This document shows positions 2,991 through 44,201 of a DNA stretch of 64,000 nt, piece after piece. The translations under genes and the position numbers were made by a program. Every line of letters starts with the position of its first letter. Position 1 is the stretch's first letter. This DNA comes from a virus (lineage: Duplodnaviria > Caudoviricetes), in the IMG/VR virus record IMGVR_UViG_3300013426_000014, positions 128,001 through 192,000 of that record; one strand, 5' to 3'. Below the pieces are notes generated by a model. It worked only from the letters and a program-made list of their open reading frames with translations, did not search any database and was not told where the DNA came from.

Positions 2991-3458
2991 ATGGGTGTCA
3001 AACTAAATAAACTTTTCAACTCCGGCTGAAACGCGGTCGATTATGGTGAGGAACGGTCGAGAAACGCCGACATAGCGGTGCTGCCGCTCGTCAGTGACAT
3101 GTACGAGGAAAGCACGACGTCCGACATAACGGGCGTCATCACACGGAAGAGTATGAACGAGGATATGTACAGGGTGTTCACTGCGTCGCCGTGATTTGAG
3201 AAGTATTCGGAGGATGGCAGACGCGTCGACAAGAAAGACATGCCGTCTGTTTATTTTTACTTTCGAGACGAGATGATGAAGAAGAACGACTACAATCTCG
3301 TTGAGGTGCTGTGCGCGATATGCGAGTTTTTTGACCTTAATTATTCGTATATGTATAATAATGTGCTCAGCCTTGCCGATAAGTCGAAGGTTCTCGAAAT
3401 ACTGGAGGACGATTACGGGCTGTCGGACAGATTCGGCAAAACGAACAGGCTGTTTTAA
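2991..3458 (+). CDS. Hypothetical protein, 155 aa, 2 TGA=Trp
   Basis: ATG 2991 MGVKLNKLFNSGWNAVDY... is in frame with track ORF 3240-3458; TAA overlaps the next ATG. Confidence 0.7.
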
Positions 3459-4561
3459 TGGAGATGTCTTTGAAACATATTGACATGACGGACGTCAAAT
3501 ACGCCGTACTCATATCGGACGTGCATCTCGGGTGTAGGAACGCGAGTATAGAGTGGATTGATAACATCACCTTGTACATGCGTGATTTTTTTGTGCCGCT
3601 CGTCAGGCGGACGGCGGTGAAAGGCAAGACGATCGTCATTGTCGCCGGCGACTGATACGATAACAGGCTGTCGATTGACATAAACGTCATGAACAGGGGG
3701 ATGGATCTAATGCGCGGCATCGCGTCCGTCGCTCCGGTGTACATGATAACAGGAAACCATGACGTTTATAAGAAGAACGGAAACGACGTCAACTCGATAC
3801 GGTATCTCGGCCTGCTCGACAATGTCACGGTCGTCGAGAACCCCACGGTCATGGATTTCGATAGGATGAGATTCCTGCTGTATCCTTGATCTGGTGATAT
3901 CAAGAAAGATACCGATTTCATATCGGCTGTCGACGGTGTCGATTATATGATCATGCATGATGATGTCAAGGGCCAGACGTATGACAACGGACGCAAAATA
4001 TTGTCAGGTCTGGATGCAGGCGTGTTTTCTGGCAAAGGAATATATTCCGGCCATATACACAAAAGGCAGGAGAACGGAAGGGTGACTTACATTGGATCGC
4101 CTTATCAGCTGCGTCGGTCAGATATAGGGAACGTGTGCGGCGTGTACACGCTCGACGTCTCTGATGATGATGTCGTCCGGACGTTTGACGCGAACACGGT
4201 CAGCCCGGAGTTCATAAAGATACGGCTCGATGATGTGCTCGACCTGCCGTACGGCGCAGTCAAGGGGATGATGACCGGCAATTACGTCGATTTTGTTGTT
4301 CGGAAATCCGCGCTTGTGTCGGTTTGCATGGCAGATATGATGCGCGCGCTTGATTCGGCCGGCGCGAAGAAGGTCCGCGTCGTCGTTGAGCAGGATGTTG
4401 ACCCGTCTGTGTCAGATACTGTGACGAAAGCTGTGACTGTCGATGACATGATTAAGAAAAAGATTGATGCGTTCGACTTGTCGGACGAGCAGAAAAAAAC
4501 GATACTTGACTTGAACGGCCGGTATATGACGGCGTTTAATGAGATGTCGATCAGCGAGTAA
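3458..4561 (+). CDS. Recombination endonuclease subunit (T4 gp47/SbcD/Mre11-like metallophosphoesterase), 367 aa
   Basis: Three track fragments join via TGA at 3653 and 3887; motifs SDVHLG, AGD(W)YDNR, GNHD, YP(W), SGHIHKRQ, YIGSPYQ. Confidence 0.92.
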
Positions 4562-4575
4562 AAAAACGGAATTAT

Positions 4576-6243
4576 ATGAGGATAACTGAATTGCAGTGGA
4601 GGAATCTGTTCTCGTACGGGAACGACATACAGACGTTGGATCTGTCAGACGGCGGCAAGCTCTGGCAAGTTGCCGGCAGGTCCGGCGCCGGCAAGTCTGT
4701 CATCATGTCGCTGCCGAAGCTTCTTTTCTTCGGCAGAACGGACGGCGTGTCAGTCAACTCGGTCGCGAACAGGATCAACAAGAACGGTTGGCTTCGCGGC
4801 GTGGTGTCAAAAAACGGTGACACGTACGTCATAGAGCGGACGTTTTCGCCGTCAGGACTTACCGTGTCGAAGAACGGTGTCGATATAGACAAGGCTGGCA
4901 AGAAGAATATGGAGGACGTCATATCGCAGGAAATACTGGACGGCATGCCGTACCACATCTTCGCGAACGTCATTAACCTGTCGCTCAAGAAGTTCAAGTC
5001 ATTCATATCGATGACGCCGGCGGATAAGCGGCTGATCATTGACCGGATATTTTCGCTTGACGTGCTCAACGCGGTCCATGAGATGGTGGCGAAGGACATC
5101 AGGGACGTCGGAAATGTCATCAATATGAACAAGGGACAGATATTCACCATCGAACAGAACATAAAAAGGTCGGAGGACGAACTTGATCGACTGACAAAAA
5201 AGACCGCGGAGGAGGACACTGCCGCCGCCGCGGAGCTTGAGACGAGCATCACCCGGATCGATGGGGAGATTAACAAGCAGAAGACAGACGAGGAGAAGTA
5301 CACGGCGAAATCGCTTGAGCTGATACAGAAGTCCGGCGCGGTGAAAAACGCCCTTTCCGGCATGCGCTTCGAACTGAACAATGTACTTAATATGATCGCG
5401 CTGTATAATCAGAACAAGTGTCCTACATGCGGGACGCCGTTCACCGGCGCCGGCTTCGACGAGGTTCGGAAAGGTCTCGCGGACAAGAAAGCGGAGATAG
5501 AGACGAACATATCGCAATATGACGCGGCAGTCCGGTCGTACGACGACATGATATCAAAGGTTGACACATGCGTCCAGACACTCAGGAACAATGTACAGTC
5601 GCTCGACCGGCTTAGATCCGCCGCCGTCATCAAGCTGAATGACATCCGGTCGGCGGAAGGACGCCGCGGGCAGGCGGCGGCGATCAACAACATCATAACG
5701 GCGGCGAAGGAGAGCAAGGTCGAGATGGACAAGATCGTCGGCGAGAACACCGCCAACATGGAATGCCTTAACATCCTTGAGGAACTTTACGGGTCGGACG
5801 GCGTGAAGAAGGAGATGATGACGGCGTATTTGCCGGAGTTGAATGAAGATATCATGTCGTCGCTGTCGTCGATGTCATTTCCGTACTCACTCGAGTTTGA
5901 CGGAAACTTTGACCCGCACATCGACGATCTTGGTGAGGAAATATCGCCCGACACTTTGAGCGAGGGGGAGCGCAAGCGCGTCGATATTGCGGTCATATGC
6001 GCGCTCGTCAAGCTGATAAAACGGAAATATCCGCAGCTCAACATGATAGCGCTCGACGAAACGTTGGGATCGTTGGATCCGGAGACGTCATGTGACTTGT
6101 TGAGATACCTCGGCGAGCTTGCTGAAGAAATCGACATCAACGTGTTTATCGTGAGTCACGCCGCCCTTGATGAGTCGTTGTTCGACAAAAGGATCACGGT
6201 CACGAAGGAGAACGGTTTCAGCTCGATCGACATATCGGCATAA
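4576..6243 (+). CDS. Recombination ATPase subunit (T4 gp46/SbcC/Rad50-like)
   Basis: Walker A GRSGAGKS, coiled coils, zinc hook CPTCG, signature LSEGE, Walker B ALDE. Confidence 0.93.
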   Translation: MRITELQWRNLFSYGNDIQTLDLSDGGKLWQVAGRSGAGKSVIMSLPKLLFFGRTDGVSVNSVANRINKNGWLRGVVSKNGDTYVIERTFSPSGLTVSKNGVDIDKAGKKNMEDVISQEILDGMPYHIFANVINLSLKKFKSFISMTPADKRLIIDRIFSLDVLNAVHEMVAKDIRDVGNVINMNKGQIFTIEQNIKRSEDELDRLTKKTAEEDTAAAAELETSITRIDGEINKQKTDEEKYTAKSLELIQKSGAVKNALSGMRFELNNVLNMIALYNQNKCPTCGTPFTGAGFDEVRKGLADKKAEIETNISQYDAAVRSYDDMISKVDTCVQTLRNNVQSLDRLRSAAVIKLNDIRSAEGRRGQAAAINNIITAAKESKVEMDKIVGENTANMECLNILEELYGSDGVKKEMMTAYLPELNEDIMSSLSSMSFPYSLEFDGNFDPHIDDLGEEISPDTLSEGERKRVDIAVICALVKLIKRKYPQLNMIALDETLGSLDPETSCDLLRYLGELAEEIDINVFIVSHAALDESLFDKRITVTKENGFSSIDISA

Positions 6244-23708: not shown

Positions 23709-25622
23709 CTAACTGATATTATTCTTTACGTAATCCTTCCTGTACGTCCTGCCGCGGAGCGTGACGTTGATGACACTCGATAGATTGTCGATATCGTCGT
23801 AATACTCGACGCCGGACGGGGACATGAACGACTCCGCGTTGACCGACCTGAACACCGGCAGTAGGTCCTGCACCTCCGTCTGCGTCCCGGCCGCGTCGGT
23901 GAGCTTGCGCGTCAGAATGATATCGCCAAACTCATCCAACCCGTAACTGCCGTCACCGTAATACGTCGAGTTGTTCCGGTCGGCATCGAAATAAACTGAC
24001 ACGGAATCAACACCGTCGATCCCTTCGATGGCCGCGACCAGATCGGACGACGGGATCCTGTCCCGTCTCGTGTTCGATATAAGGTAATCAGAAACGGCCG
24101 ACACGATCTCGTGCTTGACATTCTCAAAAGTGTAGCCCTCTCACATCTGTATGAAAATGTTGACTGCAAATTGTGGCATCTTCGGGTCGATGATCTCATT
24201 ATCCACCGTTATGATACGCTGACCGGACTCCTCTATCAGGTCAAGAATTCCCTTCTTCTCATCATCCGTTAGCTTGAAACATTTCGGGTCGCATGTAAAG
24301 TAATTTTCAGACACGCCCATCCGCTTCGATATGTCGGGTACAAGGAAAAGATATATGATATTGTCATCGAGCTTCGAGTCACGGACCGCCGCCTCCGCCT
24401 TGTCAAGCTCAGTCTCCGCGTCCTTAAACGCGGCAAGCTTGTCCTGTGCGAGAAGAGAGTTGACACCGGTCAGGTTGACCTGCGACTTATACTCATTTTG
24501 CACACGAAGGTAGTTGCTCATCGCCACGCCGTATTTCGTCTCGGCGGTCGAATCCTCGTATGTAGAGAAGCCGGATATCGTATCGATGACTGAGAACATG
24601 TTCAGTTTCCTCAGAAAATACTCATAATTGGTCGCGTTCGCCAAAACGAACGATCTCGATGCGTGCGGGGCGATGAGCCGCGTCACCGGTATTACCTCCG
24701 GCGTCGCCCCGAACAGGACGTCTGTCACGGCGGATATCGAAAATATCTCATTGAGCGACACCTCCTCCCCGCGGTCGTTCCAACCGTTCGACTCGAACGT
24801 CCACGCGTCGTTATCGGACACGGAAACGGACTCTATATTGCCGGCGTCGGCGGACGACACGAGATACTCGACCTTGATCGTTGACCCCTGATCCGGGACA
24901 CGTCCCTGAGCGCCGGTGCCGAAAAATATGTCTATCCCGCCGGACGCGCCGGTCTTGACTATGCACGCTTTCTCGTCGAATGTCATGTCGAGCAGCGACT
25001 CGACGACACGCCACCGCTCGCCGTTCACGTACACATTAACGAAGAACTGATCGATGTTGCCCTCTCCGCGAAACGGGACATTGAAGCTGTCGAGCGCGTA
25101 ACCCGAACCCGTGAACTGCTGGTATTTGACCGCGCCCTGTACAATAGGGACATCGATCGTCGACTCCGACGACCCGACTATCACGTACATCCGCTCCGAC
25201 GGCATGTTGAGTACATACTTCATGCCGTTCGCGTAATTCTTTATGACCGTGTAGTTCGGTATAATCACCGTGTCGCCGTCGTAATCGGTCGCGGATCTGC
25301 AGGTCAGTCTGACCGTTCCTCTGGCGGCGACACCCCTTGACGGATTATGCCCGGTCAGAGTGGCGAGCCCGCGGACCGAACGAGGGTGAAAGGCCCTTGT
25401 TATGTTGAGCTCGTTTATCGACGTCGATATATAGTACAATATCATTCTGCCGATATGCAGTATCACTTGTACTATCTGGAAGAACGGCGACGCCGTTGTG
25501 AACGTCTCACCATTATCTTTGTACACGCCTTTCAGATAGCCGATCACGTCCTCCCTCATCTGCGAGAAACGCAGACGGGAACGCTTGAATATGTTGAGCT
25601 CCTCGCCTTTCTTGCCTGCCAT
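23709..25622 (-). CDS. Baseplate wedge protein (T4 gp6/baseplate J-like), 637 aa, TGA at 24141
   Basis: LYYISTSINELNITRA...SVRGLATLTGHNPSR, IFFGTGAQGRVP, IKVEYLVSSADAGN, ...DLVAAIEGIDGVDSV. Confidence 0.8.
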
Positions 25623-25643
25623 TCGCCGAATATTATTTCTCAA

Positions 25644-25696
25644 ATATTTATCAATCTGAGCCGTCCGGCCAGCCGGGGCGGAAAACCGATAAATAT
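25644..25696. promoter_or_regulatory. Divergent pair of late promoters (GATAAATAT at 25644-25652 minus and 25688-25696 plus)
   Basis: Two exact motifs facing away from each other between divergent operons. Confidence 0.75.
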
Positions 25697-25717
25697 GCAA
25701 AGAACATAACCCGTAAC

Positions 25718-26959: not shown

Positions 26960-29900
26960 ATGTTCGACTATTCATCGATACGGCTTTTCGACAAGAAAGG
27001 CAAGGCGCTGCCGGCGGACTATGTAAAAACGCCGGACACGTTCTTTTATATAAAATCCGAAATAAATTCTGGTCATGACGCGCTGCTGTATCCGGTGACA
27101 GATATGGACGGCGGGTTGACGAAATTCGCCGGCATATGTGTCGACGACGGCGGTCTGCTGTTCACGGATAACACGGAACGGCGGGTCGACATCAGATCCG
27201 TCACGACAGACGATATCGTCTGCACAGCGACGCTCAAATCCGCCGACTATATTGAGCTGAACACCGCGGACGGCAAGGTATACGGGGTGAAGAACGTCAC
27301 GGCAGACGGTGTGCCGGCGATGTCTGGAACGGGCTATACAGTTCCGTTCCCTTCGGTAAAAATCCGGTCCCGTGTCAACTTCAGCCCTGTGTCGACTGGA
27401 CTTTTCGAGACGGAATGTGTGTACGCGCTTACCGAAACAGCCGGTAAATGAACGAAACAACGTGACGACCGGTGGAACCTGATGGGAGTGATAGATCCGG
27501 CCGACACAGAGTTCAGGTTCTTCTCCGTCGACACGACGACAGAGGAAATAAGTTACACGTCAAGCGTGACGCTCGACCTGTCTTCCGGCGGATACAGGTT
27601 CGATTTATGTTTCACCGCGGAAGATGAAGGTGTTTACGACGGGACGATGTATATATGCCTTGTCGACAAACAAAACGGCAACGAGCCGTATATGTTGGGG
27701 ACGGTCGCGCTGCACGGCGAGGCGGTCGGCGAGGATGAGCGTTTCAGGACGCTGCTGACAGATTTCGGTGTGCCGGATCCGAAAGAATACATCAGTACGT
27801 TGAAGGAGTCTTCCGTCGACGAGTCGAAACCGGATATGGCGCTGCTCAACAGGAAGAGCAAACAGCTGTTCCTGACATATCCCGACATATTCCCGTATGC
27901 CGGCACATATAAGGCGCTGGTGAACGCCGTGAAGTTTATGGGTTATGATGACATCACGTTCAAGGAGTGGTTCCGGACTATAGGGTCTGATGGCCCGTCG
28001 AAATATGTAACCTATGACATAACGTATGACGGAGGATCCGGAACCGTCCACTCGGCGGGAATCGAGGAACGGGCGGGCATGCGGAAGATGAACTGACTGT
28101 CGATGATGTACAGGCTCAACCGCGAGAAGGAGACGATGTCGGAAGACGGGACGCCCGATGTGTTCAATGTGTACGACTATGACGGGGACGAGCTTATGGT
28201 GAAGCTGCAGTCATTACGCAAGTGACTGGAAAAGAATATCATAGCACAGAACTGCCGGATAGTAGAGGTCGTCGGCGAGGGTGTGTACTTTGAACGTTAC
28301 CGATATGACATATATGGGACGGCGACGGAAAGCGAGACATATGACGCGGAGATGCGGCTGAGCCCGTATATCAAAGGCGGCACCGACACGCGCGTGCTGA
28401 AGGACGGGACGGCGCGGATAACGATCGGAGTAAGGGAGATCGACAGCGCGCTGACAGAACATGACATGTCGATGTCGGATCTGTCGGTCAGGAATGTCGG
28501 CGGATATGATCCGGAAGGGCTGTATATTGACAAGGAGTCGATGTCCGTCCGGAAAATGTCGGACGGGTATGACGCGGCGAAGGCGGATGATGGCTTGCAG
28601 ATCCCGCTCGACCGGACGTTCGGCCGTCCCGGCGGGATAAAATCGGTCGGCGTCAGGGCGAGCGTCTCATGCGCGGAGCATGTGTTCGCCCCGCCGTTCA
28701 CTGATCCGTCGAAAGGACGGATGCTGCTGAGGGACGGCGAGCTGACATTCGTGACGAGCGAGTGGGAAGGCAGGACCGATCCGATGGAGTGTGTATTCGC
28801 GGTGACGCCTGACATATACGTTGAATCCGCCGTCATCCGCGACCCGAACAAACCGTGACGCGAATCCGCGCTGTACACGGTGTCGGAGGGAGACGGAAAA
28901 TTCGTGATCGCGGACCAGTCCGGGAAAACCGTCGCCGAATCGACGGATTATGTAAAAATCAAGGACGGAAAACTCAGATACACGACGGCGAACAGGCACG
29001 GACTGCCGATGCTGATGTGCTCCGGCATGGCGCTGACAGCGGACGGGAAAGACACCGGCCTGATGAAAACGGGGTCGGAATACATAATCGACATCCGCGA
29101 CGGCAGGCTCGCATGAGAGAACACCGTGTCGGATCATCCGGAGTTCGTTTATCTCAACTTCAGTTATGACACGGCCGGCGGCGAACAGGATATAACGGCG
29201 AATTTTGTGTTCACCACAGACGGGATGATGACAGATGAGACTGTATACGACGGCGAATTCGTCAAAAGGTATCTCGCCGATCCCGACACGGCGTTCAATT
29301 ACAGGACCGATTTCTCCGTCGACGTGTACAAGGCCGGTGAATACGACGTTACTATGACGGGGCATGACGGATACGGCGGGACGTTCGCCGCGGCGGTATG
29401 TCCGAAACCCGCCGTCATATCGACGGATCCGCCAGAGGATTACGGGCCGGCGCCGAAATGGATCATACAGGGTATAAGTGCGGATCCGGACGCCGGCGTC
29501 ATCACATATGACGACATAAGCTACGCGGTCGATACGCCGAAACCCGGGCAGACATTGCTGCTGATGAACCTCGGCGACAGGTTCCGGCTGTCGGGCGCAG
29601 GCGGGTCATACACGGCTGAGCGGTGGGGATCCGCCGAATCGCAGGTGTTCGACATGAAAACGAAACGGGCGTATGACAACGCGGCGACAAGGAAATGATG
29701 CGCCGTTCGGGTTTCCGTCGTGTCACAGACGGACGGACGGCTAATATATGATCTGGACGGGTCGCTGTATGTCAATAACGGAAAGTATGATGTGAAGGTT
29801 GACGGCGTCGACGCCGGATTCGATAAGGCGGTGGCGGAATCGGCCGGCGTCTGGATAAGGGACAACGCCGTATATACGGGGACGGCGAAAGGATCGAGTA

Positions 29901-30241
29901 GCGGGATTGTACTTTCCCTTGATAAAATCGGGACGGCGTCATGGACGGACGGCAGCACCCCATATAAAAAAGGTCAGAACATCAGGATAAAGACGGATGA
30001 CGGGACCGCCGTATACAAGGTGACGGAGAATAAATCCGGAATCTTGACAGCGCGCGGCCGTGTGCCCCTTACCGTAAGTCAGAAAGCGGCGGTGACCTAC
30101 CAGTCCGTGGTCACGGAGATGATGACGGCCGGCGTCGATGCGGCAGAAGAGACATCTGACGGATACTGTGTCGTATTCACAGACGGATCACCGGCGGTCC
30201 CGTTTATCGATGACACATTCTCGATGATTGTTACGGATTAG
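26960..30241 (+). CDS. Large baseplate/tail structural protein, 1,093 aa, 6 TGA=Trp
   Basis: Six track ORFs in one frame joined by TGA; PYAGTYKALVNAVKFMGY resembles wedge/tail protein I motifs; TAG stop 11 nt before the inverted repeat. Confidence 0.7.
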
Positions 30242-30252
30242 GATGATTTGGA

Positions 30253-30410
30253 TACGCCGACTTCTCGTCCTACACGTCGAACTCCGACTACTTCTACATC
30301 AACCTGTACGGTCCGGGGACGACATCTTCGACGTTAATCTCGGGAAACGTACAGATGAAGTGGACGAAGGTCGCACAGGCTGTACACAAACTGAAGGTCA
30401 TCCTGGACGG
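30253..30410 (+). repeat. Left 158-bp inverted repeat (IR-L)
   Basis: tacgccgacttc...tcctggacgg; exact reverse complement of 31238-31395, checked base by base. Confidence 0.97.
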
Positions 30411-30783
30411 CGCGTCGGGCACGCCGAGCGGCGGCAATCCGTATCTCTACGCAAACTATGATAATAATAGTAAACTGCGATATGGCATATGCGGTAACAA
30501 CATACAGCAATCCGGAACAACTGTATATTTTTACATAGATAACAGTACAGAACTGGATACATGACAAATATGCTTAAATGATATAAACGCCAAAGCGTCA
30601 ATGGAAATGGGAATAACTATATCAAATGACGCATCAGTGATATGGGACTCCGAATATATACACACTTCCGGAACGGACTACCAATCTGTCGGCAACATAA
30701 TACAAGATTTAATAAACACGTATAATGCAGCGAGCACATCAAATCCGAAGACGTTCACGTTGTCGACACAAGATTTTACTTAA
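30253..30783 (+). other. Silent alternative C-terminal cassette (tip B) of the BACON adhesin
   Basis: One open frame YADFSSYTS...ILDG-ASGTPSGGNP...NSTELDT(W)Q...TFTLSTQDFT-TAA; paralogous to the expressed tip. Confidence 0.85.
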
Positions 30784-30810
30784 TATAATGGTATGTAACT
30801 GTATATTTAC

Positions 30811-30838
30811 AAAAAAGTCCGGATTACTCCGGACTTTT
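30811..30838. terminator. Bidirectional terminator at the centre of the invertible segment
   Basis: aaaaaagtccgga-ttac-tccggactttt. Confidence 0.85.
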
Positions 30839-30861
30839 ATAAATAGTTGAATACCGTTACA

Positions 30862-33800
30862 TTAAGTAAAATCTTGTGTTGATAATGTAAATGTCGATTC
30901 GCCGCTATTATATGCTGTTATCAGGTTTTGTATTATTGTACCGACTGTCTGATAGTCGGTTCCTCCGGTAGTACTTGCGTAGGATGAATCCCATATTGTA
31001 ACACCATCTTCTGTTATAGTGAACCCGCATTGCATCGACAGCATATTATCATTATATGTCATCATCTGTTGTCACGCGCTCAGTTCTGTTGAATTATCTA
31101 CATAAAAATACGCGTTTAATGAATTGTCCAGATTAAGGCTATTGCCGCATACGCCACATGACGTTTCACTGCCGCCAGAATTATCAACGTACTTTAATTC
31201 CGGGGTTGCACCTGTTTGAAACCCGGTATAGATTGTCCCGTCCAGGATGACCTTCAGTTTGTGTACAGCCTGTGCGACCTTCGTCCACTTCATCTGTACG
31301 TTTCCCGAGATTAACGTCGAAGATGTCGTCCCCGGACCGTACAGGTTGATGTAGAAGTAGTCGGAGTTCGACGTGTAGGACGAGAAGTCGGCGTAAATGT
31401 ACAGGTATGAACTGCCCGTTCCCGATATTGTCTTCGAACCGGTCGACGCGCCTGACTTCGCGGCGGACGCTGACGTTGTCGACAACCCGTATTTTACCGA
31501 GGATGAAATACCGCTTGTTGCAACTTTTCATCCGGATCTGCTCGTATCCGTTATGCGCACCGTATACGCGAAATCGCCGGAAGACGTTTGATTCTGTGCG
31601 GAAGCGTTCCAAGAAGGTTTCGAAACCACATTGGACGTCCATGTCATTTTCGCGGTTTGTATCACATTCGTGGATGACGTGCCCGGCCCGTATAATTTAA
31701 TGTTGAACCAGTCAGAACCAGTTCTCGCGGAAAAGTCCGCGTATAGATAAACATAGTCATTCCCGGTTTTACTTACCGAAAAATCAGACGCGCTGCCTGT
31801 CGTCGCTTTCGATTTCGCGTCAGATGAACCTGTAGTGGATAATCCGTATTTGACATTGGAAGATGTGTATTCAAGACCCACTTTTCATCCAGTGTTGCTT
31901 GTGTCGGTTACATATAACAAATATGTGAACTCACCGGAAGTGGTCTTGCTTTGTTCGGATGCGTTCCAGTAAGGATAGAGCACGCCAGCGGTTCCGACCT
32001 GTCTTACTGTAAATCTCTGATCATACTGATCACTTGCAGTCTTATTGATATATACATAACCCTTTCTGTCTTCCGCCGCTGTGTTTGCTGTTATCGACAA
32101 TGTCACCGAACTATTACCTACGCCGGATGTCTTGTTCGATGTGATCCATGAGTCACTGGTCGTTATCGTTCATCCTCTATTACATGCATCATCTAATGTA
32201 ACATAATTACTGATGGCGGAATTATTCTTCAACGACGATCAACTGCTCGATGTAAAATATGGAACGCGCTGTCCGGGCCAGTAAAATATACATGACTGTA
32301 GGTACGAACCGGTATTCTTATTACAAAGGGTCAGCGTAAAACTGAAGTCACAGTCTGGATTGGCAGTGTTGCCTGCGCCGATATAAATATTGATTCTCTT
32401 GTCGCCTGTCCCGCTTAATATGTTCTGTGTGTCTGGAAGATTTCCACTTGGATCCATGGCGATGTCACCGGTGTCGTCATCACGGACATATATATAACCA
32501 CCTGCAGGATCTTCATCAATCCAAGAGTTCGGACCGGATGTCGCGGTGAGCATTACAAACCATCCGACGTTGTCAGGATCTGTGATATTCGCATATATGT
32601 CGCCGGCGATGTCCATGTCAAAATCCTCATTTGTCGTTCCGAGATCCCATGACGGCATCACGATGTTGGCGTCCTGCGTCCAATACCAGTTCGGCAATTG
32701 GCTGTCTGAACTGGCCTTGTATCCGGAAAATATGGAGTTATATGCAACTCCGCCGTACCTTGTGCTCGTGCCGGTCCACGCCGGCGCGGTGACTGTGAGC
32801 ACGTCGCCGTCATACAGGTATCCGCCGGTCCACGCGGATGTCGATCCGTTCCGCGTCAAGGTCGCCGTGTATACATCACCGTAACTCGAATGTGACGTGT
32901 ACATGACATAATATACGGAATCATCGCGGTCCGTCACGGTGGATGTAACGCTCCCCGCCGATCCTCCGCCGTATTTCCAGTAATAATATTTCGTCACACT
33001 CGCGTTGACATTCAACGTCCGGGTGTCGCCGCCGGCGGATGACATGTTGGTCATGGAACTGTTTATGGCGTTATAACTGTACTTGCGCTCTATCTTGCCG
33101 TCGCTGCCTGCCTTTTCCACCTTCTCGTCACCGTTCTGTGTCCATGACGCCGTCGCCGTCTTCGTGCCTGTTCCGGCAGAGTCTGTGACGGTCGCGGTCA
33201 GCGACACGGTCCGGGTCGAGGTTGTATTGACGTTCGTCGACGCCATCAGGTAAAGTTTCGATCCGCCCGACGCTGTCGACGATGACGCCGCGCCAGAGCT
33301 CGACGTCGCGGTCGTCCACGCTCCGTTCGATCCTGTTATGCTCGCGGTCACGTTAGAATACGATCCCTCCCCGTTCGACGTCCCCGCCACGGTTCAGTAG
33401 TATACCGGCTTGCGCCGCGCGGTCAGCGTCACGTACGTTCCCGATATGTATCCGCTCGCGTTGCAGGCTATGTTCGCCGTCGATCCCTTCGAGAGCGACA
33501 CGTCATAATAATAGTGATGCGTGTACGTCGTGTCACCGGACTGCGTCACCGACTTCGACGCGGTGAGTCCGGACGTCGAGGACGAGCAGTTGCCCGAATC
33601 GGACGATGATACCGACACCGTCGCGGTCCTGCTCGACGATGTCCCACCGTTCGACGGCACATATAGGTACGCCTCGGTAGATGGCGTCATCGACGTTATC
33701 TTCGTGCCGGACGAGTTCCTGATTTCCGCCCCTGATATGCCGGATACAGATACGGTGAATGACCGCGCACTGTCCGTGTGCGTGGTCGAGCCGTAACTCT

Positions 33801-36800
33801 CTACCGTCCCGTCAGAGTTTCATTTCGTGCTCACCGTATACGTGCTGTTCAGCGTCAGTCTGGTGCTGCTGTTCGCCGCGCACGCCGCCGTGGTCGACGA
33901 CGCGGTCAGCGTCGTGGTATGGTTGTTGCACGTGTACGTGCTGTCGGCCGGCTGCGTTCACGATGTTGTTATGCTTGCTTCTTCTCCGCTGCACACATTC
34001 GTAAAGGCGACGTTAATATTAACATTTTTCGCCGACTTATTGTAAGCGTTCGATGTGACGCCGTACAGATAGATCTTCGTGCCGCCGGTCACTTTCGTCA
34101 GTTTCGTGCCGGACGAGTTCGACGGCGTGCATCGGTCGCCGGACACAGAGAATGATGTCGTCGTGTCGGTTACCGCCGTCCCGTAATATGTGGTTCCGGC
34201 GACGTCTCACTGATACTTCGGTGTCCTTTTCACCGTCAGCGTCGCGTATCCGTACGAGCTCGACGCCACTCCGGACGATCCTGTCACTGACGGGTTCCAT
34301 GACGAGCTCGCCTTCGTCAGTGTCGTCCCGTCGTATTTGTAGCAGACGAACGACGCCGTGTCGCCCGACTGCGTGATCGTGACGGATCCGGTCAGGCCGG
34401 CGGAGCTTGACTGACAGTTATCTGACTGCGAATTCGAGAAGCTGACCGTCACGGTCCTGCTCGATGTGGTCCCGCCGTTCGACGGCACGTACAGGTATCC
34501 GGCTGTGCCGCCCGTCAGCGACGTTATCTTCGTTCCGGACGAGTTCCTCAGCTCGGCGCCGGTGACGCCTGAGACGGTTACTGAGTATGTCGGCTGTCAT
34601 GATGATGTCTGACTACGTGAATATGTATTGTCGGAATTTCAATAGTATTTTTTCGTGGCTGAACATCTCGGCGTTATCGTGACGGCGCTGTTCGCCGCGC
34701 ACGCGGTTGTCGTCGACGAGCTTGATACCGTTGTACTGTAATCATAGCATGAATACTCACTATCCGCCTCCTGGGTCCATGACGTGCTCGTCGCATATGT
34801 CGAGCATCCTGTGATGGTCGCGTTAATCTTCACGGTCCTTTCCTGTGTCGTGTGGTTGTTGTCGCCGACCGTCACATAGATGACGTCGCCGTTCTTCGCG
34901 GACGATATCGCCGTCCCGGACGAGTTGACGCACGTGCAGTTCGTGCCGGTCAGCGTCACCGTCCCTTCATTGTCAGTCGAGCACGCCGTCGTGATGTTTC
35001 CCCCGACTGATCATTTGTAATACCGCATCCTTGTGACGGAAAGCACCGCCTTGTACGTCTCGCTCTTCGACGTCCCGGCACGCGGTATCGCGTTCGTTGA
35101 CGCCGGCTCCAGCTTAATCTCATACTCGTCGCATCTTCATGTCTTCGAGTCCGCCGCCTGCGTCCATGTCACGGACTTCGACGCCGCCGCGCATGTGTCG
35201 GACGGCGCGGTGACGGATATCGAGCATGTCCGTGACGACGCGGAGCATGACGACGTCGATCCCGGGTTGGACGATGCCTTTATGTACGCCTTGCCGCCGT
35301 TCGTGATTGTCGTTATCGCCGTGCCGGACGAGTTCGTGAACGAGCAGTTTGATCCGGACAGCGTCAGTGTCCCGTTGTTGTCCGCCGTCCCGGTGTACGT
35401 CCCGCCGCCGTTGGCGTACACGTATTTCGGCGTGCGCGTCACCGAAGCGGTCACATAATAGTCTTTGTTCGCGGAGATGCCCGCCGCTGGAATATCGGTT
35501 GATAAAGATTTCGTCAGTCCGATGTCATATGTATAGCATGACAGTGACGATGTGTCAGGGTTCTGTGTTCATGACGCGGACGTCGATGTCGACGTGCTGT
35601 CAGCCTGACGGAAATACATCGCGACCGTCCTGCTGCTCAGCGTGTTGTAGTTCGTGCCGACGTGTGCGTATACCTTCGTCCCGTTGGAAAGGCTCGATGA
35701 TGCCGTGTACTGCGTTCCGGATGTCGAGTCTGAACTTCACGCCGTGCAGTTCGTCATGCTGTACACGTTAAACGGCGCGTTCACCGCGGATCCAGTGTAG
35801 CCGGACGAGTAGACCGGCTTGCGGGTCGACGTCACGGTGGCGTAAAACGCGTTCGACCCGCCGACCGCTATGTTCGACGATGACGATTTCGCCGCCGATA
35901 TGGTTCTGCCTGTGTATGACGTCAGCGAATTAGTCGCCGACACGGTCGCGGTCTTGGTCGTGGACGTACTCGACCCGTTTGTGCAGGTCAGCGTGCATGA
36001 TCATGTGCCGGTATTGCTTGTCATGTTAGGCAGCGACAGCGTACACGTGTTCGACGAGCCGGACGCGGATGTCGTGCCTGACAGCGTATACTTCGAGTTA
36101 GCGTCTGACGTCTTCGTCACCGCCGCGGTGTCATACACGGTATGGCTGTTATTCGACGACCCGGATGAATAAAGATCCGACGCCGTGTGATACGCCCGGT
36201 ACGTGACCGTCGCGGACGTGCCGGACGTGCCGGACATGCCCGGACCGATACCGGATCCTATCGAAATCTCGGCGGTGTAATTTGACGGACTGTAGTTCGA
36301 GTTCGTTTTCCTGTTCTCCGCCTGATACGCGGTAAGCGTGTAATAGCAGTTCTTGCCGTTCGCGACTACATAGAATGTGGTTCCGCCGTAATCCCCGCAC
36401 GCCGTGTCAGACACTGTCGTTCCCTTGGACGCGTATGTGATCACGCCGGCCGAAGACAACGACGGCGATCCGGACGGTCGAGTGACATTATTGGTCGTCG
36501 AAGAGCTCCGCCATCCGTCAGGTATCTGGTTGATGTAGACACCGGCGACATACCATGTGACCGGCGCGGACTCAGTCCCCGCCGTTCCGGTAAGGTATCA
36601 GTGACCGATTATCGACGCTCCCGGACCGAATTTAATATACGCCGCGTATGTGCGCCATTCGCCGGCTCCGTCAAGATCAGTCGTGTCCATACCATACGAC
36701 CCGCCTGTTCCCGGGGAATTACCCGCCATATTGAGCCTGTATCCTTTCGGGATCCACGCATTAATCGTTATCTCGATCAGCTTTATTCCGGATGTCGGCA

Positions 36801-38748
36801 TCGCCGACGGCTGGCAGTTCGTATAAAACCCGCCAAGTCCCGGGTTCGTGCCGCTCCCGGTGTTCGTTATCTTCAGCGCGTATCCGGAGTTGTTCGGCAG
36901 TCCGGACGGATATCCGGATGACACGCGCGTGACAACTGTCTTGCCAGTTGCGTTGTTGTCATATGTGTATCCGGCAAAGCCGTTGTAGAATTCGGGATCG
37001 GTTCCGGCCCCTGTCGCCAATGACGTGATCGCTTGTGTGAGCCGTCAGTCGGACGCGGATTTCATCTCGTCCTCCGTCAGCGTCACTGTCCCCGTGTCTG
37101 ACGTATATGTTGCCGTCTGATACATGAGATCCCATTTAGGGGTCGCGGACCCGCCCGCCGCCGGGACAATCTTGTCATAACGCAGCCCCTTGAATGACGG
37201 CAGTCCGTACGTCACGGTGTTCGCCGCCTGGCTCGCCGTTCCCGCGCATGACGCGGACGCCGATTTGGTCGCGGTTCTGCCGCTTGTCTGGTAATCAGAT
37301 TTCAGCGTGAACGTCATTACCGCGGTCCTTGTTATGGTCGCGGATCTCGCCGCGCCGGTGACGGTCCCCCTGTCGACGCTCGTGACAGTCAGGCTCGCCG
37401 CGTTAGAGGATGTCAGCGTCGCGACGCCTGAATTCGACGTCGACCATGAATAAATCGGACCGGACCACGAGCCGTATGTCGTGACGCCGGATGTCGTTGT
37501 TGATCCTGAATCGAATACAAGCGTGCACGTCCCGGCGGACGCGGATGTCACGTTGCTGAACGCCTTCGACTGCTTTCCCGCCGAATATGACACGCTCGAC
37601 GTTATTGCGCCGGCGTTCGCGGTCACCGACTGCACGGCGACATGGTTCGCCGCCTGGCTCGCCGTCCCGGAGCATGATCCAGCCGCGGATTTCGTGGATA
37701 CGGACCCGCCGTTATATGACGATTTCAACGAATATGAATATGTCGCGGTCCTTGTTACCGTCGCGGATCTCGCCGACGCCGAATATGTCGTGCCTCTTGA
37801 CACGCTCTTTACAGAAATCGCGTTCGCGTCGGTAGAGGTCAGCGTCATGACATCTGAATTTGACGTCGTCCATGAGTACGACGGTCCGGATAATGTCCCG
37901 TACGTCGAGTAGTTCGCGACGCTCGTCCCCGATGAGAATGTTACAGTGACACCGGATATCGACGCCGCCGTTACGTTCGCGAATGTCTTCGACTCAGCCG
38001 CGGCCGAATATGACACGCTCGACGTTATCGCGCCGCCGTCAACAGACCCCATCGTGACCGCCGTTATGACATTCTTCGCCTGCGTCACCGTGACCGTTTT
38101 CGACGCCGGACCGGAAAGTGTTCCGGTCGACGGCGTCGCCGGCGAGTACGAGTAAGTTACCGTAAACACGGTCGACCCGTCGTAATAATTGTTCGAGAGT
38201 GACGACACAGTCACCTTGCCGGCGGAGTCTATCGACGCGGATCCCCCTGCCGACCCTGACGTCCGTGCCACCGACTTGGAAGGGGTGAATGTGCCGGATG
38301 TGTTCGCCTTGCCGGATTTTCACGTGTATACGATTGTACCGGCGCCGCCTGACACCTGACATGCGCCGCCCGACGCGGCCACGCTCGCCGGCGAGGCGGT
38401 TAATGTTCCTATTGAGTATGTCGTGGACATGATCCAGTCGCCTTTCTGCACGACGGTCAATGTCGCCTTAACGCCCCGTTTCTTTGTAACCGCGGTGATT
38501 ACGGCGGTCCGTTGCGAGCCCGTGTTCGACGCGATTGTCACCGTTACGGCCGTCGTCCCTTTCGGTCCGGACGTCACGTCGAGCGAACATCACGACTGGT
38601 TGGACGATACCGTCCAGTCCGTGTTCGACGTCACCGTGAACGTGAGTTTGTCCGCCGCCGCGTCCGGCGTGTATGATGTCCGCGATAATGATATCGACGG
38701 GTCGACCCCGCCTCCCGATAGCAGCCTGTGCCTGTTGTTCAATGCCAT
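30862..38748 (-). CDS. Giant Ser/Thr-rich BACON-domain adhesin/tail fibre, 2,628 aa, about 20 TGA=Trp, with switchable C-terminal tip (tip A expressed)
   Basis: Fifteen track ORFs share one frame separated only by TGA; BACON motifs TVTSNTDWTVSSNQS(W)CSL...NTGSQRTAVIT and G(W)TITTSDSWIT...NTAAEDRKG; carbohydrate-binding-like module near 36600-37020. Confidence 0.85.
31238..31395 (-). repeat. Right 158-bp inverted repeat (IR-R), inside the adhesin coding sequence
   Basis: Exact reverse complement of 30253-30410; encodes YADFSSYTS...KVILDG. Confidence 0.97.
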
Positions 38749-39026: not shown

Positions 39027-42000
39027 TTAGAAAGTCTTAAGCTTTGTCAGTATGCCGTAATTGTCGATGATGCTGAACTCGTACGTCGACCCGGATACAA
39101 TATCCGGCCTGTCTTCGTTCCACATCGTGACACCGGTAAACGTGACGCTGCCTGATCCGGCCGTGAAACGTCCGCAATATTCGTTCACGATTCCGGATAT
39201 CGCTGTGCCCTGGTTGAGTGTCACGTTTCCTGTGAACGGGGAGCTCCACACATACATCGTGTTCGGGTTGAGCGTTATCGTGCCGCTCAGCGCCGCGTCG
39301 GTCTTTTTTCAGAATTTGGTCGCGAAATTTGACAGTCCTCATCCGGACGGGGCGGCCGCCGGGAGTTGCGCGTCTATCGTCTTCCCGCCGATTGTCGCCA
39401 ATGTGACGGTCTGTCCCCACTGCAGTGCGGACGAACCGTCGACCGCCGTCCAGTTCGCGTTGACGACACCGAACTTGCCGGTTCCGTCGCCGATGAGCAT
39501 GTCGCCTTTCTCGAGCGTTTGCGGCGTGCCGGTCGATGATTTCGCCGCGGACAGTGTGAACGCCCCGTTCGCGAAATAAACAGCGCCTTTCGCTGATGAT
39601 GCCAGTCCTGATTCCGACGTCACAACACTTTCGTATTTTAACGCCTTCGCCAGATCCGCGACCGCTGCGTTCACCACCGACGTCACATAATTGACTACCG
39701 CATTGCTGGTCGGAACGTCGTTGTCGCTGGACCACACCGCGGTCGACGCGTCTTTGAACGCGGCGGACTTCAGCGCGCCGGACGCGTGCGGCATGAGCTG
39801 TCCTGACGTGTTCGTCACTACAGGAACGTTATCTGCCGTCCCCAACGCTGCCCCGACAACCGGCACGTTCCCCGCGGCGGGTCCGGCTGTTTTTTCACAG
39901 GCGGACGCCAGCGTATATGTTCCCGCGACCGGCACTCCTCCACTGAAATACACTGGTTTCGTCGCTGATCCGGCGTTCGTGCCGAGCTTGTTCGCAGTCG
40001 TGGCAACTGACGCCGTAGTGGCGGTGGTCGCGTTGCCGTTAAGCGTCACAGTCCCGCTCTCTGATTCAGCCAGGATTCACTTACCGTTTTTGAAATCATA
40101 CAAACCGGCGTTTTTCGACGATGATCCGACGATAAGGCCCATTTTTTGTGTTGACGACGCGTCAACCACGAATCCTTTATCTTTCGACAAGTCCGTCGAT
40201 ATGTACAGGTTGTCTGTCATTATGTCGCCGTTCTTCGATACCGCGTCAGTCAGTCCGTAACCGGATATTGTGGTAGGGGTTGACCCTGCCGTCACGTGTC
40301 CGAGCGCGTTGACGGTCACACTCCGGTATGTCCCAGCCGTCACGCCGGATGTGTTGTGACTCACTGTCGCCTTCGATGTAGTTCCGCCCGACACGGATAT
40401 TCCGGCGCCGCCCGCGATTTCCGTCACGCCGGACGACGTCACGTAACCCTTCCCTTCGACGAATGACTTCACTGCCGCCGCTGAAGGCACATTGACCGAC
40501 GCGTCCGCCGTGAAATCTGACGCGCTGTTCGTGAATCCTTTAATTTTTTTGCTTGTGACGGTGTTGTCCGCTATCGTCGTCGCTATCGACGACGTTCCGG
40601 ATCCGGTTACGTCACCGGTCAGACTTATCACGGAGTTCGTGAGCGTGTCTGTTCACGGCACGCTCACCGCGAGCTTGCCTGACGCGTCGACGCCGACCCC
40701 GTACACCTTTTTAGTCGTGTCGATCGTGAGCTTCGTCGTGTTGCCGAGATTCGCCTTCACCGTGACGTTTGCTGATGATCCGTTCGTGACCGTAATGCCA
40801 TCGCCGTTAGACACTGTGTTCACGATACCTTTATCATTCGCTATCACCTGTGCGGCTGATGCGGCTGCAGCCGCTGCCTTCGCCGCGGTGTTCACCGCGT
40901 TCAGGGCACTTATCGTCGGCACTGTGTACTTCGTGTCGTTCTCCGTGGTGACGGATGAGTCGGTCAACTGGACGATTCCTGCCGCTGATGTCGATGCGGT
41001 CGGCAGCGACGATTCCGCCGCGGCTGTCACATGACCCAACGTGTCGACCGTCAGTCCGGATATGAATTTGCCGCTTGTGTTGAGATTATATGCGGTATGT
41101 GATGGATGTGTGTACACCGTGTTGTCGTTCTGCCACGGCACGCTCACCGCCAGGTATCCGGAAGAGTCGATCCCGACCCCGTACACCTTACCCGTTCCGA
41201 TCTTGCCGACCGCGTTTTTCGTGTCCGACATTTTCAGCGACAGTTTCACATCCTTTCCTGATGTCGTCGCTGTTATTCCTGCGGACGCGTCATTCGCATC
41301 GACTGATTCTATCTTGCCTTTGTTGTTCGCCGTCACCTGTGCGGCTGATGCTGCATCAGCCGCTTTTTTCGCAGCGGTGTTCACCGCGTTCAGAGCGTTT
41401 ATCGTCGGCACTGTGTACTTCGTGTCGTTCTCCGTGGTGACGGATGAGTCGGTCAACTGGACGATTCCTGCCGTCTTATCTGTGGCGGTCGGTAGAGACG
41501 AATTCGTCACAGCTGTCACATGACCGAGACCGTCGACCGTTATACCAGTCAGCCATGTCGACGATTTGTTTATCGCTGTATGGGACGGATGGGTGTATAC
41601 ACTCCAATCCACTTTCACGGCGAGATCACCGTTTTTGTCAACACCAACAGCATAGACGCGGGATGTCGTGCCGCCGACGGAAGCCGATACATCCGTCGCC
41701 TTTGCTTTGACGGAGATTGTTCCATACTTCTTTCCTGACGAATCCGTGTTGTTTGTGACGGTTATGCCCGTCCCGACGGACAGGTAATTGATTACGTCTG
41801 TACCTATCCTGCCGTCCGTTTTTTTCAACGCGGTTGACAGGTCGGATATGCCGCTTTCTGCCGTACTTATCCTGCTTCCCAATGATGTGCTGACCACGCT
41901 CAACGCGTATGGTGTCGCCGCGGCAGAGTCTTTCGCCTTCTCTGTCCCGGCCGTGTCAAACAGCTTCACATGCCCGTATAAATCCGCCGTCGCTCCGCCG

Positions 42001-42200
42001 TATGTGGTTGACCCCGCCGCGTGCGCCTTCGGCGTCGTCGTGTTGCCGCCGAACATAGTGCCGTTCGCGTATATTTGGCCGGTGTCGGCGATGAACGTCA
42101 CCGATGTCGCCGGTATGTTTGATTTTTTCGCGTTGAACTTATCCGTCGTCGGGAAATAAAGGAAAACGGTGTTATCGCCTATTTTGTTTGTGACCGCCAT
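39027..42200 (-). CDS. Tail fibre protein, 1,057 aa, 4 TGA=Trp, with an internal 163-aa duplication
   Basis: Four track ORFs in one frame; LGHVTA, GIVQLTDS and YGHVKL fibre repeats; late motif at 42242-42250. Confidence 0.8.
40910..41473. repeat. Direct repeat, about 75-bp identical cores at 40910-40984 and 41399-41473 (489-bp period)
   Basis: ttatcgtcggcactgtgtacttcgtgtcgttctccgtggtgacggatgagtcggtcaactggacgattcctgccg occurs twice. Confidence 0.9.
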
Positions 42201-42350: not shown

Positions 42351-44201
42351 TTACTCCTCGACATACCACGCGAGTGACGTCTCGATCGTCGTCACGCGGC
42401 TGGATACCGCGGATACATTCGAATTTGTCGTGGCGAGTGATGCGGATGTCGCGTAATCGCCCGCTTTCTTAAATGCCAGGATGTCTGTTGCATCAAGCCC
42501 CTTGACCGTCACGGTGGTAGTGTCGCCGCCAGTGTTGACACTGATCGTTCCGTTCACCCCGGTACCGGTCGTCACACTCCTTACTGCCGCGTTAGCGTTC
42601 GACACGGCGGTCGAGAGTGCGGTTGTCGCCTTGACAGTTACCTTCTTGCCGGACGCGCTGGCGTCGATGAGCGTGTCGCCTTCCGCCGTCACGGCCACGC
42701 CGGACGCGGCCGAGCTCGCCATCTTTTCCGCGTACTTGCGCACGCCGTACAGGTCGATGCTGCTGTCTGTCGATTTCGAGTCGTCACCGGTGAGCGTTTT
42801 CTTCGCCGCCTCGATCTGTCCTTTCACTGAATTTGCGTTGGTCGATCCATCGGTAAGTGTGCTGATACTTTCCGCGTGTGAACTTACTGTTGTCTCGAGC
42901 TTTCCGATGCTGCTCTCTGCCGTCGATAATCTGCTCTTGACACTGCTTATGCTGTTATCAATCGCGGAAACCTTCGTGTCGTAATCAGTCGTCTTGACGA
43001 AAACGCCATCCTTTACCTTGAATATTGGGTTGTCTCCGGTCTCATCAAGTGTGATTGTCTTCTCATCCGCCTTATATGTATCGATAAACTCTTTTAGCGA
43101 TATCGTGACTGGATCCGTTTTGCCCGAATCAGTATTCCATGTAAACGTTATTGTTTTCGTGCTCGCATCATATTTAACGTCGCTGAGCATGCCGTCCTTG
43201 ATGAACGGATCGGCGCTGACAGTACTGATCGCATTGCCGTCCTTGTCTTTGAGTATGATGTTCTTGTTATCATACACGAGCGACACGGCGGCGGAAAGCA
43301 TACCGTTGGAGTCGAGCGTCAGGATCTTGTCGCCGGTCTTGACGCCTTTCACCGCCTGCTCGCCTTTCACGCGGGCGTCGATCAGGCTCGTGATGTCCGC
43401 CGCCTTGCCGCTTATTGTCGCGGTAAGCGTCGACTCTCCGTCTGAATCGGTCGCCGTCACGCTTTCGATGACATTGACCTGCGCGCCGGCGTTGATGCCG
43501 TCGAGTTTTGTTTTCTCGGCAGATGTATATATGCTGGTGTCGGTTTTGTTCAGCTTGGTGTCGAGCTTCTCGTATATATCGCCGATGCTACCGTCCACGT
43601 TTTTAATGCTCGTGTCAATTGTGGTGAGCTTATCGGAAAGGCCGCTCACCTGACTTTGCCCGATGCTGATCGCCGAGTTGTCGACATACAGGTTCTTGCT
43701 CGAGTCGACCTTAAGCGCGTTGCTTGCCTTAATGTTGAGACTGATCGTCGCGTTTGTCTCCGCGGTCACGGTGCCGTCTTCTGCCGTTTTGAGCGTGCCC
43801 GACGTCACGGTGAGCGGCGTGCCTTCCGCCGCGGTAAGGACGAGTGTCTGCTGGATCGCGATGATAGAGCTTACCGATTTCTCGAGTTTCGCGATTTTGT
43901 TCGCGGCGTCTGTTCCGGTTGATGTTTTGAGATCATTGACCGTGCCTGTCAGCGCAGTGATCGCGTCATTAAGCGCCTTTCCCTGCGCCGCGGTCAACGC
44001 GTTCGTCGTCGACGTTCCGGTCAGGGTGTTCACCAGCCCCGGAATCTTGAACTCGGTGTCGCTTGCCTTGAAATAAATCACGCCGTTTCCCTCACCTTCG
44101 AGGAACGCTATCGCGCCGGCCGGCATGTTTTCTTTCGCCGCGTCAAGAGTCGCACGTTTTTTATAATATTGGAACAGTGATTTTGTCTTATCGCCTGCCA
44201 T
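42351..44201 (-). CDS. Coiled-coil fibre/whisker-like structural protein (FIKDGML family)
   Basis: Heptad-rich; SADPFIKDGMLSDV; late motif at 44262-44270. Confidence 0.65.
   Translation of the reverse strand: MAGDKTKSLFQYYKKRATLDAAKENMPAGAIAFLEGEGNGVIYFKASDTEFKIPGLVNTLTGTSTTNALTAAQGKALNDAITALTGTVNDLKTSTGTDAANKIAKLEKSVSSIIAIQQTLVLTAAEGTPLTVTSGTLKTAEDGTVTAETNATISLNIKASNALKVDSSKNLYVDNSAISIGQSQVSGLSDKLTTIDTSIKNVDGSIGDIYEKLDTKLNKTDTSIYTSAEKTKLDGINAGAQVNVIESVTATDSDGESTLTATISGKAADITSLIDARVKGEQAVKGVKTGDKILTLDSNGMLSAAVSLVYDNKNIILKDKDGNAISTVSADPFIKDGMLSDVKYDASTKTITFTWNTDSGKTDPVTISLKEFIDTYKADEKTITLDETGDNPIFKVKDGVFVKTTDYDTKVSAIDNSISSVKSRLSTAESSIGKLETTVSSHAESISTLTDGSTNANSVKGQIEAAKKTLTGDDSKSTDSSIDLYGVRKYAEKMASSAASGVAVTAEGDTLIDASASGKKVTVKATTALSTAVSNANAAVRSVTTGTGVNGTISVNTGGDTTTVTVKGLDATDILAFKKAGDYATSASLATTNSNVSAVSSRVTTIETSLAWYVEE

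Follow-up and report, generated by a model that had tools for sequence, protein, structure and literature searches.

A stretch of 64,000 nucleotides of phage DNA (bases 128001-192000 of the 269,322-bp IMG/VR virus record IMGVR_UViG_3300013426_000014), called the window here and used for all positions unless another source is given, carries what is probably an invertible switch of the C-terminal cassette of a giant adhesin, flipped most likely by the homologous recombination of the phage itself. As we picture it, the part of the adhesin that immediately precedes its tip is encoded twice, once in each of two 158-bp arms. A crossover between them would flip the 827-bp middle, placing a silent tip, tip B, on the adhesin and leaving the current one, tip A, as a promoterless copy behind a convergent gene coding for 1,093 amino acids (aa). 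The crossover would be made by a UvsX-like recombinase and a gp46/47-like nuclease working on long perfect homology, a dedicated invertase being less likely, and the same recombination would keep the arms identical. The parts of the locus are these:

26960..30241, plus strand: convergent late gene, 1,093 aa, phrog_28177; its stop abuts the silent cassette
30253..30410, plus strand: left homology arm, on the side of the silent cassette; exact reverse complement of 31238-31395
30411..30783, plus strand: tip B cassette, silent in the window orientation; about 123 aa and a TAA stop
30813..30838, no strand: core of a terminator-like hairpin, bidirectional, that separates the convergent tips; in its extended form 30781-30864
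30862..31237, minus strand: tip A cassette, the current C-terminus of the adhesin; about 124 aa and a stop
31238..31395, minus strand: right homology arm, part of the adhesin gene; no difference from the left arm in 158 nt
30862..38748, minus strand: BACON-repeat adhesin, 2,628 aa in genetic code 4, with 20 in-frame TGA and BACON Pfam matches

A first, sequence-only reading of the window had reported the exact inverted repeat, and it stands: 30253-30410 and 31238-31395 are 158 nucleotides (nt) each, complementary at every position and 827 nt apart. No other long inverted repeat turned up when the entire 269,322-bp record was compared with itself by blastn. The right arm does lie, as had been claimed, inside the adhesin gene, the 2,628-aa open reading frame (ORF) with BACON Pfam matches, and the 1,093-aa gene ends in a TAG stop, 11 nt after which the left arm starts. 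The arms encode 53 residues, identical in both (YADFSS...KVILDG). An AlphaFold2 (AF2) model of this stretch has four predicted beta-strands, with a predicted local distance difference test score (pLDDT) of about 60, and by its sequence the stretch would be the latter half of the final BACON-like repeat. Between the two arm-tip units the DNA is 100% identical up to the inner arm edge and, from precisely that point on, about 55% identical. The roughly 110 residues upstream of the right arm (31396-31974) form a tandem copy of the arm-containing repeat, 55% identical to it, which makes the arm one unit of a repeated Ig/BACON-like series.

The two tips are convergent paralogues, 48% identical, each in frame with its own arm and free of internal stops (coding parts 30865-31237 on the minus strand for tip A and 30411-30780 on the plus strand for tip B), much as the first reading had it. 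Tip B, 123 codons long and with a GC content of 40%, is open throughout, and in its present orientation it is a cassette without promoter and start. No start codon of its own is found upstream of the arm, the first in-frame ATG (30355) lying inside it; and the frame upstream of the left arm contains three TGA in 38 codons, as against 0.5-0.8% in real genes, so that it looks non-coding. The bidirectional terminator that had been proposed between the tips corresponds to a strong hairpin (-32.1 kcal/mol, z = -7.75; none of 200 shuffled sequences reached this stability) bordered by A/T runs on both sides; a simple terminator scan did not list it. Modelled together with its arm by AF2 (pLDDT 77.8 overall, 80-90 over most of the tip), tip A makes a compact alpha/beta domain, for which the PDB offered no convincing match (best Foldseek E = 0.07; best VIA-align wide Z = 4.6).

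Both orientations of such a segment are found in a sister strain, which was reached through the 1,093-aa gene (98% identical in DNA between the two strains), namely through its final code-11 fragment. The flanks of the sister locus are 98% identical to the window, its perfect arms are 125 nt long and its middle 1,082 nt. Seven sister contigs from seven samples span the locus, and the evidence is therefore at the level of contigs. Five (L014, L015, L016, L025 and L026) are in an orientation termed O1, with a tip-B-like cassette on the adhesin and a double BACON-like end silent; the other two (L017 and L024) are in the reverse orientation, O2, in which the cassettes have changed places, the adhesin bearing the BACON-like end and the tip-B-like cassette being silent. 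The cassette carried by the adhesin in L014-L016 is a homologue of tip B, 72% identical to it. Between the two orientations the flanks are collinear at 99.8-99.9% identity, and the 1,332 nt bounded by the arms align reversed, with no gap. Once L017 is flipped computationally, it differs from L015 (itself identical to L016) by 1 base in 6,522 nt. L024, an O2 contig, is 12 bases away from L015 (O1) and 13 from L017 (O2): being about equally far from contigs of either state, it indicates that orientation does not track genotype. A second genotype is also present in both states (L024 versus L025/L026). In both, the adhesin frame continues uninterrupted into the fused cassette, and the other cassette is in frame with its arm.

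Assemblies in which the locus was not spanned tell a similar story. Six SPAdes contigs (67-211 kb, 47-1031x) break off either within the left arm, after 55 nt of it, or right where the arm ends, and an orphan contig, L005 (1,082 nt, 455x), is the sister middle on its own, 3 positions different from that of L014. Contig breaks at the arms together with orphan middles fit the graph signature of an unresolved inverted repeat, mixed or ambiguous in orientation. The tip encoded in this orphan (L005:2-361) is mosaic-like, its N-terminal half being 86% identical to tip B and 36% to tip A, and its C-terminal half 56% identical to both window tips. In the window, the last 19 nt or so of both tips, stop codon included, are identical, within an inner inverted repeat (30750-30806 / 30839-30895) whose halves match at 81%. 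Exchange within the cassettes may have produced chimeric tips.

The locus as it appears in the window is reproduced by contigs from other samples deposited at ENA, and is thus not an artefact of one assembly. Two of them (L006/L008) match it base for base over 8,183 nt across both arms, and a third (L010, 993 nt) runs through the left arm from end to end and into unique sequence on either side, which speaks against the possibility, raised in the first reading, that one copy of the repeat was created by the assembler. An orphan contig of 827 nt, seen in two samples (L007/L011), is exactly window 30411-31237 at 100% identity; it hints at orientation ambiguity in the window's own strain, and it is the only such sign. 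A 233-kb contig crosses the window-type locus at only 7.9x; the assembly of a sample at 13x failed to cross it, which fits conflicting read support, without proving it. These look-ups used code-11 tip fragments (P0001, P0002 and P0006), that is, ORFs inside the segment, and could not reveal a flipped contig; contigs with similar neighbours were moreover collapsed. The inversion first proposed, which would fuse tip B to the adhesin, is thus backed by the two orientations of the sister contigs; the own strain has yielded the window orientation only, plus the 827-nt orphan, and we infer that it flips as well.

Recombination between the arms predicts that they should evolve in concert, and so they do. 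Over 52 codons they show 0 synonymous differences, against a proportion of synonymous differences (pS) of 0.73 in the adjoining tips. Four substitutions separate the sister arms from those of the window, each of them present in both arms of its genome; similarly, a C>A change specific to L004, a more distant relative, is in both L004 arms. Substitutions common to the two arms within a genome point to repeated sequence exchange between arms since the strains diverged. The 125-nt arms are invariant across all seven sister contigs. Arm length depends on the lineage (158, 125 or 121-123 nt), each arm ending where the homology of the cassettes ends, which fits an exchange driven by homology better than one at a fixed site.

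The cassettes themselves seem to be of consequence. Comparing tip A with tip B gives a ratio of non-synonymous to synonymous substitution rates (dN/dS) of about 0.17, dS being saturated. The sister middle shows 20 differences in 1,082 nt, compared with 7 in about 5,200 nt of flanks, a density of single-nucleotide polymorphisms (SNPs) about 14 times higher (L014 versus L015, positions 3678-4718). In three lineages the GC content of the cassettes is 10-16 points below that of adjoining genes (0.40 versus 0.55; 0.51 versus 0.61), the regions compared being window 30411-31237, L014:3659-4740 and L003:8966-10056; this suggests exchange with a different sequence pool. A layout kept despite divergence of the tips, intact silent cassettes, a low dN/dS, an excess of SNPs and a low GC content together suggest that the cassettes matter to the phage, and tip B looks maintained.

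Proteins with the tip module are rare: HMMER, run in full over 1.84 billion representatives, returned ten matches. Three further lineages were reached through those that could be used; P0004, P0007 (a wasp protein) and P0008 were discarded as multi-stretch alignments to repeat-rich proteins, judged compositional. IMG/VR contained nothing for the tip protein, for the C-terminal third of the adhesin or for an exact 65-nt arm pattern, and its sole match to the 1,093-aa protein comes from a relative, L001, is 33% identical and has another layout. Aligned tips gave 68 pattern matches among JGI metagenome contigs, 0 of them confirmed, and a near-length protein search with the tip gave no matches.

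The same layout is found nonetheless in an ENA contig of 101,868 bp (L003): adhesin (2,520 aa, code 4), arm, tip, terminator, silent tip on the opposite strand, arm and 1,093-aa gene. The L003 tips share only 35-41% identity with those of the window, and the silent one is an intact frame of 176 codons. The comparison of related genomes recommended in the sequence-only reading has thus provided both flipped tips (five O1 and two O2 contigs in the sister) and different ones (L003). L004, a close relative of L003, has arms of 121 nt that are 98% identical to each other, and in its silent slot there is an unrelated BACON-like end of the 'X-type', with TFG as its last residues, frameshifted in this contig and in frame in L039-L041. 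The 1,093-aa gene is kept as the neighbour in all relatives (synteny in L003, L004 and L014). Across strains, three types of cassette have been found in one slot, the contents of which appear to turn over from strain to strain.

Which enzyme would carry out the inversion? Six-frame profile searches of the whole 269,322-bp record, each run with positive controls, found no match to Resolvase (PF00239; the control search matched 12/14 control genomes), Phage_integrase (PF00589; 14/14), the large-serine Recombinase domain (PF07508), either domain of the IS110/Piv family (PF02371, PF01548), TnpB (PF07282), rve (PF00665), Y1_Tnp (PF01797) or the reverse transcriptase RVT_1 (PF00078). What the first reading had said of the vicinity, that it lacks an invertase, therefore holds for serine, tyrosine and other recombinase families over 269 kb. 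Genes of general recombination are present, both the gp46/47-like ones already noticed in the window and, in the search suggested beyond its limits, a UvsX-like one:

3458..6243, plus strand: gp47/gp46-like pair (SbcD/Mre11 and SbcC/Rad50); phrog_100 at 1.6e-57, phrog_77 at 1.6e-73
G000:C1:59258-60508, outside the window, strand not given: UvsX-like recombinase; RecA Pfam at 3.6e-16, phrog_97 at 1.2e-47

T4-type phages recombine frequently and need only some tens of bp of homology to do so; a perfect inverted repeat of 125-158 bp is thus expected to recombine during replication. The general recombination machinery of the phage is presumably what flips the segment.

Some observations weigh against a switch of this kind, and those that bear on the enzyme would favour a site-specific recombinase – from the host, from an unsampled part of the phage genome or hidden in an unrecognised phage protein – acting at a short core, the long identity being a by-product. 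We regard this as unlikely. Bacteroidales carry many invertases, and known tail-fibre switches in published work all rely on such enzymes. The repeats of the P1 C segment are 0.6 kb long, and the long inverted repeats of P1 coexist with its site-specific Cin/cix system, so that long arms alone are no proof of homologous recombination. At its outer edge the arm begins with 19 nt that do not differ between the window, the sister and both L003 arms, even though the tips are just 35-41% identical, and this stretch could be a crossover site; it varies, however, in L004, and shows no clear dyad symmetry by eye. CheckV puts the completeness of the record at 87%, and a recombinase gene could sit in the missing part of the genome or in the host; against this, genome lengths agree between independent assemblies (263.2-263.5 and 269.3 kb), which suggests near-complete genomes, and the recombinase, transposase and reverse-transcriptase families are absent from the 269 kb in searches with positive controls. 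Finally, concerted evolution over the full arm needs homologous exchange in any case.

The other adverse points concern the inversion and its use. The isomers come from a sister strain whose second cassette differs from that of the window, and the orientation of a contig could in principle be a mere choice of the assembler. All own-strain contigs that span the locus (the window, L006/L008 and L010) are in the window orientation. The adhesin is a putative receptor-binding protein by its position and its BACON repeats only. The L003 arms, 123 nt long, are only 87% identical to each other, and silent cassettes are frameshifted or degenerate in L004 and L034/L035, from which it follows that the system is not maintained everywhere. 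Hence the view that the inversion is real and unprogrammed, the second cassette being left over from a duplication or a horizontal acquisition and the alternative fusion having no selected function. This we hold to be quite improbable: lineages with no more than 35-41% identity between their tips still have the layout, assemblies of different samples took one orientation or the other as their main path, and the SNP density of the cassette, about 14 times that of the flanks, is as expected under diversifying pressure. The degeneration of tip B in relatives, to which the sequence-only reading had drawn attention, is a matter of lineage, since in addition to the degenerate cases just listed there are silent cassettes intact and in frame in the window, the sister, L003 and L039-L041.

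That there is no inversion at all, tip B being expressed in place (as an extension of the 1,093-aa protein or as a 142-aa protein from the arm ATG) and the opposite orientations being misjoins, is very hard to believe: an ATG (MKW/MRW) is indeed conserved in all arms, a 142-aa ORF exists in the window and L003, and in all contigs seen of the L003/L004 lineage the silent arm is in frame with the 1,093-aa gene and starts right behind its TAG, but the window/sister lineage has an 11-nt spacer and differing frames, the frame upstream of the arm holds its 3 TGA in 38 codons with no slippery heptamer by eye, and flipped contigs come from three samples, one of them 77.6 kb long at 28x, and match the other state to within 1-13 bases, which is not expected of random misjoins. 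The TAG-adjacent arm (...SMIVTD*YADFSS..., the asterisk standing for the stop; L003:10205-10225, L004:7980-7995 and L034-L041) makes a read-through extension of the 1,093-aa protein possible in that lineage; in the window lineage, where the spacer is 11 nt and the frame different, fusion of tip B to this protein by frameshift or read-through was rejected as unlikely, the upstream frame being rich in TGA as well.

A switch flipped by homologous recombination can be set beside systems already described. The tail-fibre segments Mu G, P1 C, e14 P and p15B Min (with the serine invertases Gin, Cin, Pin and Min) are alike in that inversion swaps a variable C-terminus onto the constant N-terminal part of a host-recognition protein, the alternative cassette is silent and convergent, and the repeats are inside coding sequence. 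They differ from the locus of the window, where no invertase gene was found anywhere in the 269-kb record, no chaperone gene is present in the segment, and the repeats are arms of perfect coding homology, 121-158 nt long and variable with the lineage; the invertase systems have short, fixed crossover sites of about 26 bp, dyad-symmetric and placed at the ends of the repeats, together with an enhancer bound by Fis. Furthermore, Mu, P1 and e14 are temperate enterobacterial elements, whereas the phage of the window has no integrase match and has Lak megaphages as its nearest known relatives. As the defining invertase was looked for and is absent, the locus is not a member of the Mu G / P1 C family.

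Inverted repeats of plastids and herpesviruses also give rise to flip-flop isomers. Such isomers, driven by recombination, have been described for the Burkholderia jumbo phage Matilda (bioRxiv 10.64898/2026.10.21.760668) and for the Anabaena cyanophage A-1(L) group (bioRxiv 10.64898/2026.02.14.705889). There, as here, the inverted repeats are long, both orientations occur in populations, no dedicated recombinase has been identified and intramolecular homologous recombination is proposed. However, repeats of 0.4-18 kb flip whole-gene blocks of 1.3-30 kb in those phages, with no coding change reported, whereas here a segment of 0.8-1.1 kb is inside a gene and its inversion rewrites the C-terminus of a protein. 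Our locus shares the hallmarks of flip-flop by homologous recombination: long near-perfect repeats, both orientations (in the sister, at contig level), recombination genes and repeats evolving in concert.

A survey of gene-altering programmed inversions has listed prophage tail fibres among the targets and invertases among the enriched neighbours (Milman et al., NAR 2023, PMC9881135). Programmed inversions and shufflons (Rci, Rin) resemble the present case in having inverted repeats in coding sequence that generate alternative specificity alleles, but a tyrosine or serine invertase stands beside the locus, and none was detected in the phage of the window. The record equally lacks the tyrosine recombinase of Fim-type invertons and the IS110, TnpB, rve or Y1 transposase genes of Piv/IS110-type and IS-associated inversions. 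Diversity-generating retroelements (DGRs; BPP-1, crAss-like phages, Hankyphage) likewise diversify the C-terminal receptor-binding part of a fibre by means of a non-expressed repeat copy; a DGR was rejected here, as the record gave no reverse transcriptase match, the repeats stand in opposite directions and are 100% identical, free of adenine-specific mismatches, and two discrete tips take the place of mutagenesis. Literature searches, incomplete in their coverage, found no description of a recombinase-less receptor-tip switch with coding arms in a virulent or recoded large phage.

The source of the window is a TGA-recoded gut phage, distantly related to Prevotella Lak phages. The nearest relatives of its UvsX-like protein in the phage collection are Prevotella Lak megaphages (47-50% identity), and INPHARED phages gave no match at the protein or DNA level. 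The 2,628-aa ORF is open only when TGA is read as Trp, so that the system does escape notice under code 11, as had been remarked. In both tips TGA occupies the same invariant Trp column, an observation of the first reading that proved correct, and relatives have TGG there, which supports TGA as Trp. Late genes require this decoding, an example being the adhesin, whose 20 TGA align with TGG in relatives. The 33 tRNA genes of the record (G000:C1:202467-222425, outside the window) include Trp-CCA only for this amino acid, the anticodon TCA being absent; UGA decoding could depend on the host, on the missing part of the genome or on an unusual tRNA. Self-comparison also disclosed a perfect tandem array with a period of 39 nt outside the window (G000:C1:52888-53051).

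The adhesin sits within a baseplate/fibre module, which comprises:

23712-25700, strand not given: baseplate wedge homologue, phrog_219 (profile match)
42354-44201, strand not given: fibre repeats, Phage_fiber_rpt (profile match)

The same late module contains a second giant candidate adhesin, a 2,834-aa code-4 ORF (13095-21599, minus strand) with five BspA-type LRR_5 stretches (2.2e-57) and an EndoS-LRR match. A 224-nt direct repeat, 86% identical between its copies (40828-41051 / 41317-41540), lies inside a late ORF of 1,057 aa (39027..42200, minus strand) and thus reflects an internal domain duplication.

Judging by their position and by analogy with known switches, tips A and B would bind different receptors, and a phage population would be mixed in its adsorption specificity, host range or target of adhesion. 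We lean, with a little more belief than doubt, towards a broader view, namely that virulent large phages with their own UvsX, gp46 and gp47 run a programmed host-recognition switch without an invertase. An inverted duplicate of a 120-160-bp adhesin arm would be enough for continual flipping, the arms would be kept alike by gene conversion, and the silent slot would act as a docking site for unrelated cassettes exchanged between strains (A/B alpha/beta tips, double BACON-like end).

Phase-variable receptor binding in phages is a textbook matter only for temperate enterobacterial phages with Gin-type invertases. Here, two alternative ends of an adhesin are found in one clonal lineage of an uncultured, recoded 269-kb gut phage, and all that appears to be needed is a pair of coding homology arms and the general recombination enzymes of the phage. 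If this is true, searches for invertons centred on invertases miss a class of phage switches, and host-range prediction from one assembled orientation is incomplete. Contig breaks and small orphan contigs in viromes would then be readable as signatures of switches, to which standard annotation would be blind, the genes being readable only with TGA as Trp. The turnover of cassettes, three types in one slot, would offer a concrete model of how large gut phages track the variable surfaces of Bacteroidales.

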